Positions 128-49,066 of a stretch of 56,543 nucleotides of DNA are shown here, piece after piece. Positions within the stretch are counted from its first letter, which is position 1. Every line of letters starts with the position of its first letter. The notes under the pieces were generated by a model, which saw only the letters and a list, made by a program, of their open reading frames with translations, was not told where the DNA came from and did no database searches. Origin of the DNA: a virus; IMG/VR virus record IMGVR_UViG_3300038393_000879, one strand, 5' to 3'. Position numbers and translations under genes: made by a program.

Positions 128-723
128 AGGAGGTTCCAGAGATGGATTTAGAAAAATTGTTACAATCTATTTCCGATATGATTGATGAGAAACTTGCGAA
201 GTTCGCGAAAGAGGACGAGAAGCAAGACGAAAAAGACATCGAGAAAGCGGAAGAAAAAGAAGAAGTCAAAGCAGAGGACGAAAAGCCTGAAGGGGACGAA
301 GAGAAACCGGAAGAAAAAGCGGACGAAGCAAAAGACGAAGAGAAAGAAGAAGTAAAGGCTGAAGACGAAGGCGAAGAAAAGCCGGAAGAAGAAGCAAAAG
401 AAGAAGAGGAAATGAAAGCGGAAGAAGTGAAAGAAGACGAGGACGGTAACGAACCTGTCGAAGAAGACGACAAGGAGAAAGACGACCTTAAAGCTGAAAT
501 CGAAGCATTAAAAGCTGAACTTGCTGGATTAAAGGCTTCCGTTGATTTAACCGCTTCTGCTCGTAAATCTGTTCCTTATCCAACTACGCTAATGGCGAAG
601 TATGAAATTAAGGAAGACAGCTACGAAAATTTAATGGCTGCTATCGACAAGATGGAAAACCTTTCAATCGAAGAGCGTATGGCGCTTAAGTTTGAAGCTC
701 GTCAAAAGTCGCAAGGTAAATAA
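1..723 (+). CDS. C-terminal part of the wrap-around head scaffold / prohead-protease-like protein (continues from 55982-56416; 385 aa when joined)
   Basis: Frame is continuous across the junction; very acidic E/K-rich coiled-coil segment typical of scaffolds; lies between portal and capsid genes. Confidence 0.7.
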   Translation: MDGLYEGEEIAVVSQLGYFTGASILLKDSAAYTSTALAASKEEEVPEMDLEKLLQSISDMIDEKLAKFAKEDEKQDEKDIEKAEEKEEVKAEDEKPEGDEEKPEEKADEAKDEEKEEVKAEDEGEEKPEEEAKEEEEMKAEEVKEDEDGNEPVEEDDKEKDDLKAEIEALKAELAGLKASVDLTASARKSVPYPTTLMAKYEIKEDSYENLMAAIDKMENLSIEERMALKFEARQKSQGK

Positions 724-785
724 TCTTTGCGCAAATTTAACACTACTAAACTAAAATCCTATTAGGAAAATGGAGGAAATTACAA

Positions 786-1778
786 ATGTCAAACCCACAA
801 TTCTTAAACCTTAATGCTGCTGCTGATTACATGGGCAACGGCGCAATCGAAGTACCTGAATTTCAAAAGGAAATCCTTGATTTAGTACGCAGAAACGGCG
901 CGCTTGCTCAACGCATTAGCTATGTTCCAGCAACTGGTTCAATCTCTCGTTTCTTCGAACAAACAGCTATCGCTGACGGTAACTACACAGATCCAAGAAA
1001 CATTAACCCAACCAGCACTTCACCAACTCGCGTAGAGAAGTCTTTATTGGTTAAAGCTGTAACAAACCGTATCGACTATTCTTTATTCGATCTTGAAACT
1101 GTTGGACAACAAGGTGTATTCGCGCAATTAAAAGCGAAAGACATGGGAGATATGGTTAACGGTATCCTTCGCCTTCGCGATAAAGGCTTATGGCTTGGAA
1201 CTGACACTGTTTCTGGCTCTCAAGTAGGTGCTGGTGCAACAACTCAATACGTTGGTCTATTAAACCAAGTATCTACAACTAAAGTAACTATCGCTTCTGG
1301 TTCTTCTATCGTTGATGGATTACGCTCTGAAGTGGCTAAATTAGTTGCTAACTCTGATTTCGCTATCCGTCCAACTGCTATTTACATGAACCCACTTGCT
1401 ATTGACGCTCTTGAGAAAGAAGTTAAAAATGCAAACGGTTCTATCAGCTTCATCGTAAACGGCGTTCAAGATGGCGTTGCTGGTCTTTCTGTAACTGGTA
1501 TCGTAACAGCTGCTGGCGTGTTACCGATCATTCCTGAACCATTCCTAGCAACTGACGCACCTCAATTCTCTGCGGCTCCTGCTGGACAACACAACTATCC
1601 TTTCGCTATCGTTTGCGAAGACTTAATCGAATACCACTACATTGGATCTAAAAATCCTCGTGTATTCCAATTAGGTACTGCTGCTAACTTGAACGAAAGC
1701 TATGTTGGCGTACTTTTCGGCGCTCCTGTTGTTAAAGCTGCTGACAAAGCTCATGTTATCGGTGCTGTTCAATTCTAA
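786..1778 (+). CDS. Major capsid protein
   Basis: 330-aa ORF after the scaffold; RBS aaaatggagg; strong terminator follows; position and size fit. Confidence 0.75.
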   Translation: MSNPQFLNLNAAADYMGNGAIEVPEFQKEILDLVRRNGALAQRISYVPATGSISRFFEQTAIADGNYTDPRNINPTSTSPTRVEKSLLVKAVTNRIDYSLFDLETVGQQGVFAQLKAKDMGDMVNGILRLRDKGLWLGTDTVSGSQVGAGATTQYVGLLNQVSTTKVTIASGSSIVDGLRSEVAKLVANSDFAIRPTAIYMNPLAIDALEKEVKNANGSISFIVNGVQDGVAGLSVTGIVTAAGVLPIIPEPFLATDAPQFSAAPAGQHNYPFAIVCEDLIEYHYIGSKNPRVFQLGTAANLNESYVGVLFGAPVVKAADKAHVIGAVQF

Positions 1779-1791
1779 TAAATGAATATCT

Positions 1792-1818
1792 GGGGCGGGT
1801 TTCCCGCTCCTTTTATTT
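1792..1818 (+). terminator. Rho-independent terminator after the capsid gene
   Basis: GGGGCGGG-ttt-CCCGCTCC hairpin followed by TTTTATTT. Confidence 0.8.
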
Positions 1819-1844
1819 ATGTTTAATAGGTTAGGAGGATTACA

Positions 1845-2042
1845 ATGGCTGTTAAAAAAGAAACGAAAAAAGAAGCTGTTAAAGAGGTTTTAAAAGACGA
1901 GACAGTTGAAGTTTCGCTCGTTAATCACAATGGCGAAAATCAAGGCGTTTATGTCGTTGGTTTATATATTGAATTCGTTGATGGAAAAGCGAAAGTTACA
2001 AGCGATGTGGCAAAGGCTCTTAAAGATTTAGGATTGGTTTAA
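1845..2042 (+). CDS. Small head-module protein, function unknown
   Basis: 65-aa ORF with RBS taggaggatt. Confidence 0.6.
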   Translation: MAVKKETKKEAVKEVLKDETVEVSLVNHNGENQGVYVVGLYIEFVDGKAKVTSDVAKALKDLGLV

Positions 2043-2043
2043 T

Positions 2044-2544
2044 ATGAATTATGTAACAAATTCAGATTTACCGGTTTCTATTTTAGAGCGTGCTGAAACC
2101 TTGTTCGAGCGCTTTTTAGGTTATACGATGGCTTCTAGGGAATACGAAGAGATTGTACGAATATCTCCGGTTGGTTTCCCATTGAAAAATATTCCTGTTG
2201 TTAAGATTATATCAGTTTATGGAAAAACAAGTCAATCAGGAATTTTCGAATACGGTAAATTTTTCGGTTCAACCGATTGGATTGAATTAGATACGAATGA
2301 CATCGTTGTTCATACGAAAGACGATTTAATTTCGCTGTCCCTTCCGCCCAGTTTGTTTGGAACTCCGTATGAAGAAGCCAAGATAAAATATGTTGCGGGC
2401 ATAATGGAAACTCCGCACGATGTAGAAGAGGTTATTCTCGAGATTGCAAGGCTGTTAAACGCTGGCGAAATCGACGAATGGCGTTGCTTTCTACCCGTTG
2501 AAATATTAGATGTGATTGAAAAATACAGAAAGGGGGCGAACTAG
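2044..2544 (+). CDS. Putative head-tail adaptor/connector protein
   Basis: 166-aa ORF tightly packed in the head-completion module; call rests on position only. Confidence 0.45.
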   Translation: MNYVTNSDLPVSILERAETLFERFLGYTMASREYEEIVRISPVGFPLKNIPVVKIISVYGKTSQSGIFEYGKFFGSTDWIELDTNDIVVHTKDDLISLSLPPSLFGTPYEEAKIKYVAGIMETPHDVEEVILEIARLLNAGEIDEWRCFLPVEILDVIEKYRKGAN

Positions 2545-3435
2545 GTGTCACAATATCTTACGGCTGATGAATTTAAAAAAGCTCCAACCGGCATAGACAC
2601 TTCCTCGCTGGATCAAACGAATATCGGAAACCAAGCCGCTCAAGACGCAGCACTTACGATTGTTCTCCGTCAAGCAAGCTCATGGGTCGATAACTTTTGT
2701 CAAGTCAACTCACTTGAGGCGACACTGAACACGGAGCATAAAGAAGTAAGAATGGGACGCGATGGACGACTAAATGTTCATGTTGATAATACGCCGATTA
2801 TTGAACTGCAATCAGTGAAATATCAGACGTTTCCGACAACTGGAAAACTGGACATAGCCGTTGACCAAATTATTGTTTATGATAACTGGTTCTCTATTTT
2901 CAACCTTCCGACATTGGCAAACGCTTTATACGGTTTGAATGTCCAACAACCGCTACCATCTACTTGGTACAACACTCCTTACCGCAGACAACTCGCTTCA
3001 GATGTTCCAATTTCCCTTGAATACACCTATATCAATGGTTATATGAATTCGCTGCTCGCGCTCGACGCAACCGCAGGCGATACAACCATCACGCTCAAAG
3101 ACGCGACTGGTGCTTACACAGGATTGAAATTTACGATTTATGACGGCGCAAGCGAAGAATATGCTACGGTTCAATCCGTTAGTGGGAATGTGGTTACGCT
3201 AGCTGCTCCGCTTTTATTCAGTCACTTATCTGGTGTTTCTGTTTCGGCTCTTCCGGCAAGTATCAAACAAGCAACCCAGCTCGTTGCCTCGTATTTAATC
3301 AAAGAACGCGGCTCACTTGCGATCACGATGAGCGAAACCGTTGTTCAAGGTACAGCGATGAGCTATAACAAAAACTCTGATCTGGAACTGGCGAAAGACC
3401 TGTTAAGACCGTTTGTTCGAAGGGTCGTGAGCTAA
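2545..3435 (+). CDS. Virion structural protein, function unknown
   Basis: 296-aa ORF (GTG start) abutting the previous stop codon. Confidence 0.55.
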   Translation: MSQYLTADEFKKAPTGIDTSSLDQTNIGNQAAQDAALTIVLRQASSWVDNFCQVNSLEATLNTEHKEVRMGRDGRLNVHVDNTPIIELQSVKYQTFPTTGKLDIAVDQIIVYDNWFSIFNLPTLANALYGLNVQQPLPSTWYNTPYRRQLASDVPISLEYTYINGYMNSLLALDATAGDTTITLKDATGAYTGLKFTIYDGASEEYATVQSVSGNVVTLAAPLLFSHLSGVSVSALPASIKQATQLVASYLIKERGSLAITMSETVVQGTAMSYNKNSDLELAKDLLRPFVRRVVS

Positions 3436-3938
3436 TGTTTAACGTAAGGCTTGATCAACGCAGCTGGAACCAAATCAATCGCTTTTTTGAAGGTTCTGAA
3501 CTTTGGGAAATGCACATGCACGACCGTCTTTCAGAGGACTTGGCGAAATCAGCGAAAGAGCACATGAAACCTATGCTGCATGTTCGTCCGGTTCATACCG
3601 GAAAACTCGAGCAAAGTATCACCGAACAAATCCATTTTAACAACGAAGGGTTCGACATCGAATTCTACGGTCTGTTATATGGTCTTTGGGTGGATACCGG
3701 TAACTTCCCGCCTTCGACGACGATTGACGCTTCGAGCTATGGATACAAAGCGTTTCCAGTTGACGCACGACTTGGCGCCAGCAACCCACAGCGTGTTATT
3801 CACGGTATGGGGTCACAGAATACAAACGCCCCAACGCATTATTCCGAGAAAACAGCCAAGTGGTTAGCGGAAGACGAAGCGACAAAAATCGGTATGGAGC
3901 ACCTTGAAATGTGGCTGGGAAGCGTGGTGTTACGATGA
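3435..3938 (+). CDS. Putative head-tail joining / head-closure protein (HK97 gp10-like position)
   Basis: 167-aa ORF; its ATG overlaps the upstream stop. Confidence 0.45.
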   Translation: MFNVRLDQRSWNQINRFFEGSELWEMHMHDRLSEDLAKSAKEHMKPMLHVRPVHTGKLEQSITEQIHFNNEGFDIEFYGLLYGLWVDTGNFPPSTTIDASSYGYKAFPVDARLGASNPQRVIHGMGSQNTNAPTHYSEKTAKWLAEDEATKIGMEHLEMWLGSVVLR

Positions 3939-4363
3939 GAAACGATATTAAAGAACTCGTTAAAACTGCGATTTCCGGCGTTTCTGGAATTCAAGCGGTT
4001 TATACACACAGACCGAAAATTCAAAACCAATTTCCAGCGGTTGTTATTCATTTACCAAAAGCTGATGAAACGAGAGTGTCGGCTAGCGCACCAATCGGAA
4101 AAAAGAAAGTGGTTTATACCGCACAGCTTGAAGTTTTCACGATCGACCAAACGCCTGATGGATCTGGTCAAGTCGCTTTCGAAGACATACTCGATGAAAT
4201 CGACATCGCCCTGCGGGCTGATCCACAGTTCGGCGGAGCGGTTCTCGCTGCTGGTGTAGAATACATCAAAACCGTTGTGGCACCTCCGCAGTTGGTAAAT
4301 GGTCAAAACATCGCCATTTTAGCCGTAAAGACATTTGATATTACGGTCATGGTTACTGGTTAA
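3935..4363 (+). CDS. Putative tail completion / terminator protein
   Basis: ATGA start-stop overlap with the upstream gene; 142 aa; lies upstream of the tail tube gene. Confidence 0.45.
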   Translation: MRNDIKELVKTAISGVSGIQAVYTHRPKIQNQFPAVVIHLPKADETRVSASAPIGKKKVVYTAQLEVFTIDQTPDGSGQVAFEDILDEIDIALRADPQFGGAVLAAGVEYIKTVVAPPQLVNGQNIAILAVKTFDITVMVTG

Positions 4364-16070: not shown

Positions 16071-16388
16071 GTGGTTGCGTGGTTACTGGCATACTGGTAC
16101 ATTCCCGCGCTGGTTGTTATTATCGCTGGGATCTTTGGCGCAAAGAAGCTGGCGAATAAAAACGCAAGGAATGCGGCGCTGTATGCAATATGGAAGCTAG
16201 AAGACAGAGTGTTCGAAACGATGGACGAGCGTATTGAGGCGATTGCCGAGCTTGGGTATGAGTTGCTACCGGTCCGTATCCGGTTAATCGTTTCAGAAAA
16301 AGCATTTACAAGCATTGTAACGCAAGTGTACGATGAATTAAAAGCGCTGATTGATAAGATCGACGGCGTGAAGCATAAAATAAAATAA
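16071..16388 (+). CDS. Putative holin / membrane protein
   Basis: GTG start after AGGAGGGG; N-terminal TM helix (WLLAYWYIPALVVIIAGIFGA); last gene before the terminator. Confidence 0.45.
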   Translation: MVAWLLAYWYIPALVVIIAGIFGAKKLANKNARNAALYAIWKLEDRVFETMDERIEAIAELGYELLPVRIRLIVSEKAFTSIVTQVYDELKALIDKIDGVKHKIK

Positions 16389-16427
16389 AAAAAAGAACCG
16401 CCTCCAATTTCGGGGGCGGCTTTTTTT
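16387..16427. terminator. Bidirectional rho-independent terminator between convergent late and middle operons
   Basis: A-run, CCGCCTCC-aatttc-GGGGGCGG, T-run. Confidence 0.8.
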
Positions 16428-16429
16428 GT

Positions 16430-16690
16430 TTAGTGGACTAAAAATAATAATCTTGTTTTCTTGCACTCTTTAAAGTATTCAAATAATTTTATTTCTGTTA
16501 CATCATCAAACGGATAATGAACCCAAAAACCGTCGTCTTTCGAGTACAACCATGAATAATAAACGAGCCAGTCTTTTCCTTTTTTGCCGAAGGTGAAACA
16601 AAACTTTGTTCCTTCGTACATAAATTCGATGTCAAATGTATCTCTTTCGATGTGAAAATCAATAACATCAACTCTCATCGGTTTCATCAA
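16430..16690 (-). CDS. Hypothetical protein
   Basis: 86-aa ORF at the end of a - strand operon; start uncertain. Confidence 0.5.
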   Translation of the reverse strand: MMKPMRVDVIDFHIERDTFDIEFMYEGTKFCFTFGKKGKDWLVYYSWLYSKDDGFWVHYPFDDVTEIKLFEYFKECKKTRLLFLVH

Positions 16691-44493: not shown

Positions 44494-44544
44494 TTTATCC
44501 CTCCTATGGGTCGCCGGCTGTAACCGGTGGGAAAATTGAAACAT

Positions 44545-44620
44545 CCCCAGACCGTCGAGAGGTTTTTTCGTTCCTCTCTAGGTTTCGGCTCGCGGTTTCT
44601 GCGCTTGCCTCTTCAGTGGG
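44545..44620 (-). ncRNA. Type I hammerhead ribozyme, copy 1
   Basis: CCCA-CUGAAGA-GGC..GCC-GAAA-CCUAGAGAGG..CCUCUCGACGG-UC|UGGGG; predicted cleavage between 44550 and 44549. Confidence 0.85.
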
Positions 44621-45154: not shown

Positions 45155-45200
45155 TTCGTCACCTCCTATGTGCCGGCGGTGGTTATGCCGGTGGGATTTT

Positions 45201-45281
45201 CCCAGACCGTCGGAAAGTCGCGCGGGGCGTTTCTTCCCTAGGTTTCGCCGGTGGTTCCGTTCCTTCCGGCTCTTCAGTGGG
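45201..45281 (-). ncRNA. Type I hammerhead ribozyme, copy 2
   Basis: CCCA-CUGAAGA-GCCGG..CCGGC-GAAA-CCUAGGGAAG..CUUUCCGACGG-UC|UGGG; predicted cleavage between 45205 and 45204. Confidence 0.85.
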
Positions 45282-46199: not shown

Positions 46200-46234
46200 A
46201 CACTTTTTTAATTATTTTGTGTTTGTGGGTAACG

Positions 46235-46298
46235 CCCAGACCGTCGAACCGTTTCCGGCTCTAGGTTTCGCCTCGATTTTCACGGGCTCATCAGTGGG
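46235..46298 (-). ncRNA. Type I hammerhead ribozyme, copy 3
   Basis: CCCA-CUGAUGA-GCC..GGC-GAAA-CCUAGAGCCG-GAAA-CGGUUCGACGG-UC|UGGG; predicted cleavage between 46239 and 46238. Confidence 0.85.
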
Positions 46299-46713: not shown

Positions 46714-46774
46714 GTTTTCACCTGTTAACCTCTCCGAGAGTTTGAAAAACTCGGGGGCGGGATTTATTGCGCTT

Positions 46775-46847
46775 CCCGGACCGTCGAGGGGCTCGCCTTT
46801 TGGCGTCTTCCTCTAGGTTTCGACGCTTGCGGCGTCTCATCAGCGGG
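46775..46847 (-). ncRNA. Type I hammerhead ribozyme, copy 4
   Basis: CCCG-CUGAUGA-GACGC-CGCAA-GCGUC-GAAA-CCUAGAGG..CCUCGACGG-UC|CGGG; predicted cleavage between 46779 and 46778. Confidence 0.88.
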
Positions 46848-47141: not shown

Positions 47142-47206
47142 TTTTTTTCACCTCGTGAACCGTGCCAGCCTTTAAAAAACTAGCCGGAGGGGTCTCAAAA
47201 TCTGCG

Positions 47207-47281
47207 CCCCAGACCGTCGAGGCGTTGCCGTTACGCTTGCCTCTAGGTTTCGAAACGCCGCCGCGTTTCTCGTCAGTGGGA
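47207..47281 (-). ncRNA. Type I hammerhead ribozyme, copy 5
   Basis: UCCCA-CUGACGA-GAAACGC-GGCG-GCGUUUC-GAAA-CCUAGAGGC..GCCUCGACGG-UC|UGGGG; predicted cleavage between 47212 and 47211. Confidence 0.88.
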
Positions 47282-47633: not shown

Positions 47634-47662
47634 TTTATAAATCCATTGTTTTTATTTGTCAA
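47634..47662 (-). promoter_or_regulatory. Sigma-A-type early promoter of the ribozyme operon
   Basis: aaaaagtaTTTGACAa-17 nt-TATAAA. Confidence 0.6.
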
Positions 47663-47879
47663 ATACTTTTTTTATTATTTTGTGTTCGGAACGGCGGAAC
47701 CGTTGGAAACACTGGAAAAAATATTTTTCGTTTGTTTTTATATTCTAGTTATCGGAAACAATCGGCGGGAACTTTAGAAAATAATCGGTTATTTTTTGGG
47801 GGACGGTAACAAAAAGAAAAGAAGCAAAAGAAAAAGAAATAACTATATTATATTATACGAGAAAAACAACACCTTAAAT

Positions 47880-48300
47880 TTTTATGGGTGGCGGGGGGTC
47901 TTCGAAAATGTGGCGGTTTATCGTTTTTATTTTCTGGGAAATGGTGGAGAACAGCGGGGAAATTATCGCCGGCATTGTCTCGAATAAATCGGCGGTAACG
48001 TCTAAAGACGTATGGGGAAACGGTGGGGAAATCGTGGGAAATTGTCGGCAATACTGACACGGAAAACCTAACGGAAAAACCTGCGTTTTGGGGTACGTTT
48101 GGGGACATGTAAACAGCCGGCAAATCCGCGCTGTGTCTGGCGTCGGGGGATCGGTTGGGGTTCGCGCTGTGGGTTCGTTGTGGTATCGTTTGGAGCTGCG
48201 TGAAATGGCGTCTGCATGCGCTTGCCGTAACTCGGACGGGGGAGAAGCTGCGGGAAACATTGGGGGTTACGCTGCAGCCCATGGGGGAGTAAGCGCGAAG
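47880..48300. repeat. Non-coding G-run / GGGAAA iteron-like repeat field
   Basis: GGGGAAACGGT-GGGGAAATCGT-GGGAAATTGTC in tandem at 48014-48046, plus many dispersed GGGAAA/CGGAAA and GGGG tracts, all on the + strand. Confidence 0.7.
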
Positions 48301-48740
48301 GCACTTCGAACAACAAAAAAATTATTTATTTCTTGCTGCAAATACGCCGGAACGGGCGGGACGGACACCATTCGTTAGAATTGTGTTTGTGTTTGTTCGC
48401 TGAAACAATCGCCAGACCTTGCGCCGCTTGCGGTTTCTGCTAATTAAAGGGCGAGGGGTACGCCCCCGGTATGCAAGAGCCGCCCCGCCGCCGAACGCGC
48501 AACGCTAAGTGTTTGACGCACGTTCTCATCGAAATTTCAATGTTGGAGTAACGCCGTTCGATCGTCGATTGTGCGTTGTTCCTGAAGCATAGCTTCGCAT
48601 GCAGGCGTTGTTCATGCGTCAATTTATCGTCTGTTCATACGAGGTTGCCACCCCATCGTGAAAATGTCGTTCCAAAAATTGATGAAATCGCATAAAATTT
48701 CGCGAAAAATTTTTCACAAATACGGGGGTCTGCGTGGCAT

Positions 48741-48965
48741 GGTCGGTAATTAACTTCTGACCTCGATTTATACGTAGATCGGTAATTCATTTCTTATCCG
48801 AGTATCTTACTACGAATTAGCGTAAGCCCGGTAAATCAACATTTTCAGCGACAGGTCGGAAATTGGTTACAGGTCGGTAAAATATTGCAGGTTACAATAA
48901 TATAATATATATTATTAATTTCTAAAAGATATATAAATAATGGTGACCGGAAATAAACTTCTGAC
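48741..48965. repeat. Six YCGG(T/A)AAW boxes, two AACTTCTGAC boxes and an AT-rich tract (candidate origin)
   Basis: ggtcggtaatt, atcggtaattc, cccggtaaatc, ggtcggaaatt, ggtcggtaaaa, gaccggaaata; AT-only run at 48895-48945. Confidence 0.7.
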
Positions 48966-49066
48966 GTATATAAAACGAGGTAACGCTATAAGTGATACAT
49001 ACGTTATTACCTTAGAAACATTAAATAAACGCTTATGCGTTTATACACGCTTTAACACAGAACGAT

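Follow-up and report, generated by a model that had tools for sequence, protein, structure and literature searches.

Early mRNAs of the phages T7 and SP82/SPO1 are cut between cistrons by RNase III, and the cut leaves a stabilising 3' hairpin on the upstream product. RiboJ, an engineered type-III satellite-RNA hammerhead, is accompanied by a hairpin that does not reuse a strand of stem I. Perreault et al. described in 2011 clustered, active hammerheads flanking prophage genes, proposed that these process long phage transcripts into gene-length mRNAs, and presented loop-to-tail pseudoknots as a tertiary stabiliser (PMC3088659). Stop codons are mentioned nowhere in that paper, which likewise contains no hairpin competing with stem I and no conserved internal loop in stem III (PMC3088659). 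A 2019 review still considered the role of small bacterial and phage ribozymes open and does not mention stop codons (PMC6765202). The same review describes the hammerheads of rodent Clec2 3' UTRs as discontinuous and as cleaving between the termination and polyadenylation signals (PMC6765202). In fungal RNA viruses, a type-I hammerhead fills nearly all of a small intergenic region and cleaves just before the next ORF, 7 nt from the start codon, and cap-independent initiation has been proposed (bioRxiv 10.1101/2024.05.16.594327).

We analyzed a 56,543-nt stretch of phage DNA (IMG/VR virus record IMGVR_UViG_3300038393_000879), called the window below, in which five hammerheads lie within 2.7 kb, on the same strand and between seven small ORFs. 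As in the clusters of 2011, several hammerheads on one strand are spread over a few kilobases between short and varied phage genes. Clustered prophage hammerheads having been published then, this kind of element was already known, and the finding is not categorically new: the window copies are new members of the clustered phage hammerheads. They are set apart from the 2011 set by a stem I of 4 bp and by stem III, whose UA/GAC internal loop is invariant, and they are missed by Rfam. Their nearest functional counterparts are the RNase III sites of T7 and SP82, the RiboJ insulators and the hammerheads of fungal RNA viruses. With the RNase III sites of T7 and SP82 they have in common an intercistronic cut of early polycistronic transcripts and a hairpin at the upstream 3' end; those sites need a host enzyme and a double-stranded site, whereas the window RNA would cut itself and leave 2',3'-cyclic-phosphate and 5'-OH ends. 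RiboJ-type insulators, in which cleavage standardises the 5' end of the downstream mRNA, have the same layout of ribozyme, hairpin and RBS, but the window hairpin competes with stem I, unlike that of RiboJ. In contrast to the fungal virus hammerheads, which are eukaryotic, the window ribozymes are pinned to the upstream stop codon and lie 50-170 nt from the next start. Placement in a 3' UTR is shared with the Clec2 hammerhead, which is eukaryotic and split, cleavage removing the poly(A) signal and lowering expression (PMC6765202). In the literature searched we found neither a ribozyme that starts at the upstream stop codon or supplies that stop with its core UGA, nor a covarying 5'-terminal hairpin competing with stem I, nor cassette-exchange junctions at a stop-ribozyme boundary.

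The window is the genome of an unclassified phage of about 56 kb that encodes a large terminase, a major head protein and a DNA polymerase; a tRNA scan of the window gave zero tRNAs. No close relative was retrieved by megablast among GenBank phages, the best identity of the terminase among them was at most 37%, and the early regions of Bacillus myophages gave only weak patches of about 70% matching the window. The hammerhead array is located in the early genes on the minus strand. Its ORFs are small and without assigned function, one of them carrying DUF7659, and are preceded by two putative sigma-70-like promoters. The putative early promoter P1 (47634-47662, minus strand; TTGACA-17-TATAAA) was read from the sequence, the promoter scan having overlooked it because its -10 hexamer ends in A. 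Its putative unit comprises ORF A, HH5, ORF B, HH4, ORF C, ORF D and HH3, in which HH5 denotes hammerhead copy 5 and so on. The scan did detect the putative promoter P2 (46172-46199, minus strand; TTGACA-16-TATATT, 11/12 matches), whose putative unit comprises ORF E, HH2, ORF F, HH1 and ORF G. No intrinsic terminator was predicted on the minus strand within the array. Copy 3 (46235-46298) lies about 35 nt upstream of the strong promoter-like P2 (46172-46199), again with no intrinsic terminator between them. At this position it would cut off read-through from the first transcription unit, serving as an insulator or a terminator substitute.

Contigs from other samples that are 100% identical to the window over the array yielded the same ORFs in independent gene-calling pipelines and, being identical, offer no variation to compare. 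No homologue of ORF A was found besides ORF A itself, and the 260-aa ORF carrying DUF7659 had zero relatives when used as query in viral contigs. DUF7659 homologues on four other phage contigs (L103-L106) have no hammerhead, so the ribozyme is not tied to the DUF7659 gene. The RBS context (C)CAUAGGAGG is repeated before ORF E, ORF F and ORF G (46090-46081, 45170-45162 and 44510-44500, minus strand), and before ORF F and ORF G it comes after a CCGG...CCGG hairpin. The repeats of RBS context and hairpin suggest that the duplicated unit consists of entire leader cassettes. Two other parts of the window may be mentioned here. The approximately 1.3 kb upstream of the early promoter (47650-49000) is without a convincing ORF, contains scattered short direct and inverted repeats, for example AACAGCGGGGAAAT and CGGTAATTAACTTCTGAC, each three times, and may be an origin or regulatory region. 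The GC-rich hairpin at 16387-16463, which has A and U runs to either side on both strands (AAAAAAGCCGCCCCCGAAAUUGGAGGCGG...UUUU), matches the Thr- and Phe-leader of Rfam weakly; it most likely terminates transcription in both directions where the structural and replication modules converge.

The identity of the five elements was established by pattern, alignment and covariance. The stem III pattern CGAAACCTAG-N8-38-CGACGGTC occurred five times in the window and zero times in 100 shuffles. On the minus strand all five copies share the layout CCCR-CUGANGA-(hairpin)-GAAA-CCUAG-(hairpin)-CGACGG-UC-YGGG, which has the core and connectivity of a type-I hammerhead, helix I being open: C3 to A9, stem II, G12 to A14, stem III with A15.1-U16.1 as its closing pair, and C17 where cleavage is predicted. 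They read CUGA(C/U/A)GA ... GAAA ... GUC, with A15.1 and U16.1 placed to pair, and the core is intact in each (C3-U4-G5-A6-N7-G8-A9, G12-A13-A14, the A15.1-U16.1 pair and C17). Copy 5 (47208-47280, minus strand) was recovered by the pattern, by the consensus fold and, at 59.6 bits, by the covariance model R1 described below. Its stem I 5' strand CCCA occupies 47280-47277, the core CUGACGA 47276-47270 (C3 being 47276), stem II 47269-47252, GAAA 47251-47248, stem III 47247-47214, U16.1-C17 47213-47212, and the stem I 3' strand UGGG 47211-47208, so that the predicted cleavage falls between 47212 and 47211. The other copies, likewise of type I and on the minus strand, are copy 4 at 46775-46847 (57.6 bits; stem I CCCG/CGGG; predicted cleavage between 46779 and 46778), copy 3 at 46235-46298 (64 bits; between 46239 and 46238), copy 2 at 45201-45281 (55.6 bits; between 45205 and 45204) and copy 1 at 44546-44620 (57.2 bits; between 44550 and 44549).

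Pattern scans found the full motif elsewhere at 12 viral, 29 metagenome and 6 genome loci, the last including Selenomonadaceae MAGs and a Cohnella isolate. The RNAalifold consensus of 39 copies was a type-I hammerhead in which stems I, II and III were recovered, with invariant core columns and double compensatory changes at 11 of 15 pairs. Both RNA ends, 5' and 3', exit via stem I. This helix is 4 bp long and covaries strongly (CCGC/GCGG, CGCC/GGCG, CCAG/CUGG, CCAC/GUGG, CUCA/UGAG, ACAA/UUGU and others), each of its pairs being changed on both sides in 3-24 of the 39 sequences; covariation was also seen in stem II and distal stem III. The base of stem III is invariant, with ACC/GGU, a UA/GAC internal loop and a G-C pair (47247-47243 and 47219-47214 in copy 5, for example), is common to type-I and type-II hammerheads of many contigs, and could be a tertiary or protein-binding motif. 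The covariance model R1, built from the 39-copy alignment, had exactly five matches in the window at 55.6-64 bits, the next best scoring 8.5 bits, and found further type-I hammerheads in the fetched loci, frequently several per contig. Many viral loci have the same stem III without the 5' CUGANGA; in these the CUGANGA strand follows the stem I hairpin, which makes them type-II hammerheads. Such type-II elements often form arrays and were seen at L002:11171-13063 (four copies), L024, L011, L058, L046 and about 40 other viral loci. A twister-sister ribozyme at L086:917-987 (minus strand; Rfam, 64.6 bits) shares its array with three type-I hammerheads.

The Rfam hammerhead models RF00163, RF00008, RF02276, RF02275 and RF02277 gave zero matches in the window at gathering thresholds; below gathering, only copy 3 was matched, by Hammerhead_3 at 23.3 bits against the 48.5 needed (E=1.6). 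This miss is due to the seed composition of the models and not to the absence of a defining feature. The five elements are type-I hammerhead self-cleaving ribozymes, assigned from the sequence with predicted cleavage sites, and belong to a distinctive sub-class with a 4-bp stem I and the invariant UA/GAC loop in stem III, of which Rfam misses type-I and type-II forms. The pseudoknot hammerhead whose crystal structure appeared in 2024 (PMC11300833) was considered and rejected as the same form, its pseudoknot replacing helix II.

Each of the five copies follows closely on, or contains, the stop codon of the ORF upstream, and the five junctions reported in the first-pass annotation of this DNA were all confirmed from the sequence and the ORF list, on the minus strand. 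ORF A (47608-47273, 111 aa) ends UCC CAC UGA, its stop (47273-47275) being U4-G5-A6 of the copy 5 core. The ORF before copy 4 (47141-46851) ends in TAA (46853-46851), then AAA and the CCCG of stem I, a spacing of 3 nt. The same 3-nt AAA separates TGA (46304-46302; ORF 46481-46302) from the CCCA of copy 3, and TAA (44626-44624; ORF 45154-44624) from the CCCA of copy 1. Before copy 2, the TAA (45291-45289) of the ORF 46071-45289 is followed by CACCCCA (7 nt) and then CCCA. Likeness among the window copies starts at the stop codon and does not include the ORFs. Copy 5 has an out-of-frame UAA at the position expected for a cassette stop (GUUAAAAAAUCCCACUGA); the ORF continues past it, with the core UGA serving as a back-up stop. 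The invariant UAG of stem III was considered as a third-frame cassette stop and rejected, because its frame relative to C3 varies with the length of stem II and differs between copies.

When a stop codon occupies the A site, a bacterial ribosome encloses about 9-10 nt on the 3' side of it, as toeprint and ribosomal helicase data indicate. This is less than the 12-15 nt of downstream cover assumed in the first-pass annotation. At the 3-nt spacings the shorter reach covers stem I on its 5' strand plus one or two nucleotides at the start of the core; in copy 5 and other cases with a core UGA stop it takes in the whole CUGANGA strand, and in copy 2 it extends just to the edge of stem I. The steric premise of that annotation holds with the smaller figure, the 4-nt stem I 5' strand being inside the reach of a terminating ribosome in four of the five copies.

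The adjacency extends to the relatives. For 58 unique type-I hammerheads on viral, metagenome and genome contigs we searched upstream for the longest open frame of at least 40 codons that ends close by, and we grouped the hammerheads into 49 independent upstream contexts. The stop was the core UGA in 11 contexts, about a fifth, overlapped stem I in 6, and preceded it by 0-8 nt in 18 and by 9-26 nt in 4; it was farther than 26 nt in 9, and in one case a dubious ORF read through the hammerhead. Adjacent stops (core UGA, overlap, or at most 8 nt) thus account for 35/49 contexts, or about 70%, and for 30/44 when the window is left out. The median upstream gap was 2-3 nt versus about 50 nt to the next start downstream. 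A comparison with generic ORF-to-ORF gaps is crude, because it is restricted to ORFs of at least 60 codons, and is an indication only. Practically all long ORFs entering type-I hammerheads end at or before the core UGA, with the one dubious exception. Across the type-I relatives there was no sign of selection for a safe stop distance of at least 10 nt. In about 25% of the family the nearest long ORF is more than 8 nt off, and stop adjacency is not obligatory for type-I hammerheads.

Other ribozymes in related contigs show the same behavior. Of 47 type-II hammerheads, 32 have a stop that ends 1-12 nt ahead of G12, with a mode of 3, and that is therefore in contact with the 3-4-nt 5' strand of stem II or shares one base with it. 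Junctions such as UAA-GCC-GAAAC, UAG-GCC-GAAAC and UGA-GGC-GAAAC exchange all three stops, so what is conserved is a true stop codon and not an RNA motif. Two type-II hammerheads that Rfam does detect have the same adjacency, and in the single twister-sister example (L086) the stop of an upstream 99-codon ORF lies 12 nt inside the element. The adjacency of stop and stem I put forward in the first-pass annotation is thus conserved in about 70% of the 49 contexts but is not specific to stem I; it is a general property of these phage ribozymes, and the spacing is not fixed.

One related phage allowed the junctions to be compared directly. A homologue 89% identical to the 260-aa DUF7659 ORF lies on L101, a metagenome contig of 6.9 kb, of which 560-4140 represents a related phage with a mosaic early region. 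It has four hammerheads, homologues of copies 4, 3, 2 and 1, at spacings of 3, 3, 7 and 3 nt, identical to those of the window copies. The comparison of stop-to-stem I spacing in related phages that the first-pass annotation suggested thus shows identity in the one close relative available; across the family the spacing runs from -8 to +8 nt and beyond. The genes around the L101 hammerheads have changed. Upstream of the copy 4 homologue is a different, 110-aa ORF ending UAA-AAC-CCCG; before the copy 3 homologue the stop has changed in place from UGA to UAA; and between ORF F and the copy 1 homologue there is an extra 56-aa gene ending AAA-UAA-AAA-CCCA, the UAA of ORF F being followed by the RBS of the inserted gene. 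In both phages the junction reads (A)AAUAAAA(A/C)CCC(A/G). Since the spacing was kept despite gene replacement, insertion and stop change, the gene-swap junctions fall at the stop codon. In this one related phage, the sequence suggests that hammerhead plus leader behaves as a conserved linker and the RBS-gene-stop segment as a variable cassette. The exact UAA-AAA-CCCA type of junction in copies 1, 3 and 4 is common to paralogous cassettes bounded on the 5' side by the stop. The distal stem III of the copy 4 homologue is wholly different in sequence, with pairing retained.

A further shared feature lies downstream of the cleavage site. In all five window copies CCCR recurs 5-16 nt downstream of the stem I 3' strand (YGGG), with which this second copy can form an alternative hairpin. 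This hairpin is (U)GGGG ... CCCC in copy 5 (47189-47211, minus strand, in the minimum-free-energy fold), CGGG-N13-CCCG in copy 4 (46758-46778), UGGG-CGUUA-CCCA in copy 3 (46226-46238), UGGG-AAAAU-CCCA in copy 2 (45192-45204) and UGGG-N14-CCCA in copy 1 (44528-44549), all on the minus strand. The pairing covaries: in copy 4, stem I and the downstream copy share the change, giving CCCG...CGGG...CCCG. A 4-nt copy of the stem I 5' strand was present within 30 nt downstream in 33/57 family members, compared with 12% in cross-paired controls and 9% with shuffled tails; it was seen with 11 different stem I sequences, at loci that include L003, L022, L031, L039, L063, L078 and L091. By nearest-neighbour folding, all five predicted window 3' products begin with the alternative hairpin, and in the five full-length copies it beats stem I by 0.9-4.4 kcal/mol, a figure computed without tertiary or pseudoknot terms. 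Cleavage could therefore be slow or conditional. The hairpin was not positively associated with close stops, being present at 19/39 close stops and 13/17 far stops. The 3' product of type-II hammerheads natively starts with the stem I hairpin, so both types would yield an mRNA with a 5'-OH-terminal hairpin. From the folding models, the alternative hairpin may make cleavage irreversible, as a product trap, and it may protect the new 5' end.

Not all downstream copies of CCGC could be assigned purely to this hairpin; part of them represent the known pseudoknot (AGCCG/CGGCU and similar), and the two signals were separated statistically. Pairing of at least 4 bp between loop II and the 3' tail was possible in 26/57 family members versus 14.5% of cross-paired controls. 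Copy 1, where GAAAC of loop II can pair with GUUUC of the 3' tail in a 5-bp pseudoknot, was the only window copy with at least 4 bp, and the 2-3 bp of copies 2-5 are at chance level.

The reading that we consider best supported, with a probability of roughly 55%, is constitutive intercistronic self-processing, in which the stop adjacency would reflect 3'-UTR minimisation and cassette architecture, and occlusion by the ribosome would be tolerated. It builds on four established points, namely that the elements are hammerheads, that stop adjacency is family-wide, that the hairpin covaries and where the cassette junctions lie. The five hammerheads would most likely cut two early polycistronic transcripts into single-gene or two-gene mRNAs, the module order being stop codon, hammerhead, short hairpin, Shine-Dalgarno site and next start codon. 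As the whole catalytic core is 5' of the cleavage site, the upstream mRNA would retain its stop codon and end, after the hairpins of stems II and III, in a 2',3'-cyclic phosphate. On the downstream mRNA, which would start with a 5'-OH, a 5'-terminal hairpin would form as the first four nucleotides, the stem I 3' strand, re-pair with the second copy of the 5' strand. We infer from this arrangement that cleavage takes place in vivo, that the terminal structures are stabilising and that regulation is lacking. Placement of the ribozyme flush with or inside the upstream stop would be mainly a feature of design and compaction: the structured 3' end would follow the ribosome-covered ORF with no naked linker in between, and the stop codon would bound an exchangeable gene cassette on its 5' side. 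Since the 4-bp closing helix has to be opened by any ribosome that terminates there, folding and termination cannot occur simultaneously on one RNA; we judge this mutual exclusion to be tolerated and not used as a timer.

UTR minimisation and cassette boundaries appear to fit the data as well as the translation-timed cleavage proposed in the first-pass annotation. There, a terminating or queued ribosome at the upstream stop would hold the 5' strand of the closing helix, so that folding would follow only upon ribosome release or on untranslated RNA, and separation or decay of the cistrons would be coupled to upstream translation. In keeping with such gating, the distance between stop and stem I is -8 to +3 nt in four of the five window copies and at most 8 nt in about 70% of relatives, no selection for a safe distance of at least 10 nt can be seen, the L101 spacing is conserved, and the competing hairpin could capture the freed stem I 3' strand. 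However, the spacing is variable across the family; the same adjacency occurs in type-II hammerheads and one twister-sister, whose 5' elements are different; the alternative hairpin is not enriched at close stops; and the exact UAA-AAA spacing is explained by the gene-cassette junctions. Dwell times at termination are short relative to typical hammerhead half-lives, and in Firmicutes-like hosts transcription outruns the lead ribosome, so any gating effect is expected to be modest. We regard translation-gated cleavage as unlikely.

The cassette junctions could alternatively be the whole explanation, the repeated hammerhead-plus-leader units being linkers between exchangeable RBS-gene-stop cassettes with no role as RNA. 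Stop-AAA-stem I would then be the inherited edge of a repeated unit, maintained via recombination at A-rich microhomology. The replaced and inserted genes of L101 do join at the stop codon, the likeness of the window copies begins at the stop without extending into the ORFs, copy 5 has its out-of-frame UAA at the cassette-stop position, and the RBS context CCAUAGGAGG is found three times. Such a linker model nevertheless leaves unexplained why unrelated hammerheads of two topologies, on many contigs, also abut stops. It rests on one related phage, and it is compatible with self-processing rather than exclusive of it; as a sufficient account it seems doubtful. A more radical alternative is that the elements are hammerhead look-alikes without catalysis, for example protein-binding or transcription-terminating hairpins, and that stop adjacency is ordinary intergenic packing. 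Zero Rfam families at gathering score and a stem I of just 4 bp would fit this idea, but all core positions are invariant, the three helices all covary over 39 sequences, there are five copies versus zero expected by chance, and other ribozyme classes, namely type-II hammerheads and a twister-sister inside a type-I array, are present in the fetched related contigs. We consider it highly improbable.

A stronger possibility, which we hold to be rather improbable, is that the upstream stop serves as a purposeful docking site for phage ribozymes of more than one topology, where the ribosome, as a reversible clamp on the short closing helix, and the covarying competitor hairpin would together form a translation-sensing switch. 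If true, such a switch would decide the timing of early polycistronic mRNA splitting and set the lifetime and stoichiometry of neighbouring cistrons, and hammerheads of bacteria and phages would thereby have a definite role in regulation. For the thousands of small bacterial and phage ribozymes, stop adjacency turns the question of their role into an experimentally specific one, with translation, mRNA stabilisation and modular gene exchange as candidate reasons for the stop-ribozyme arrangement.
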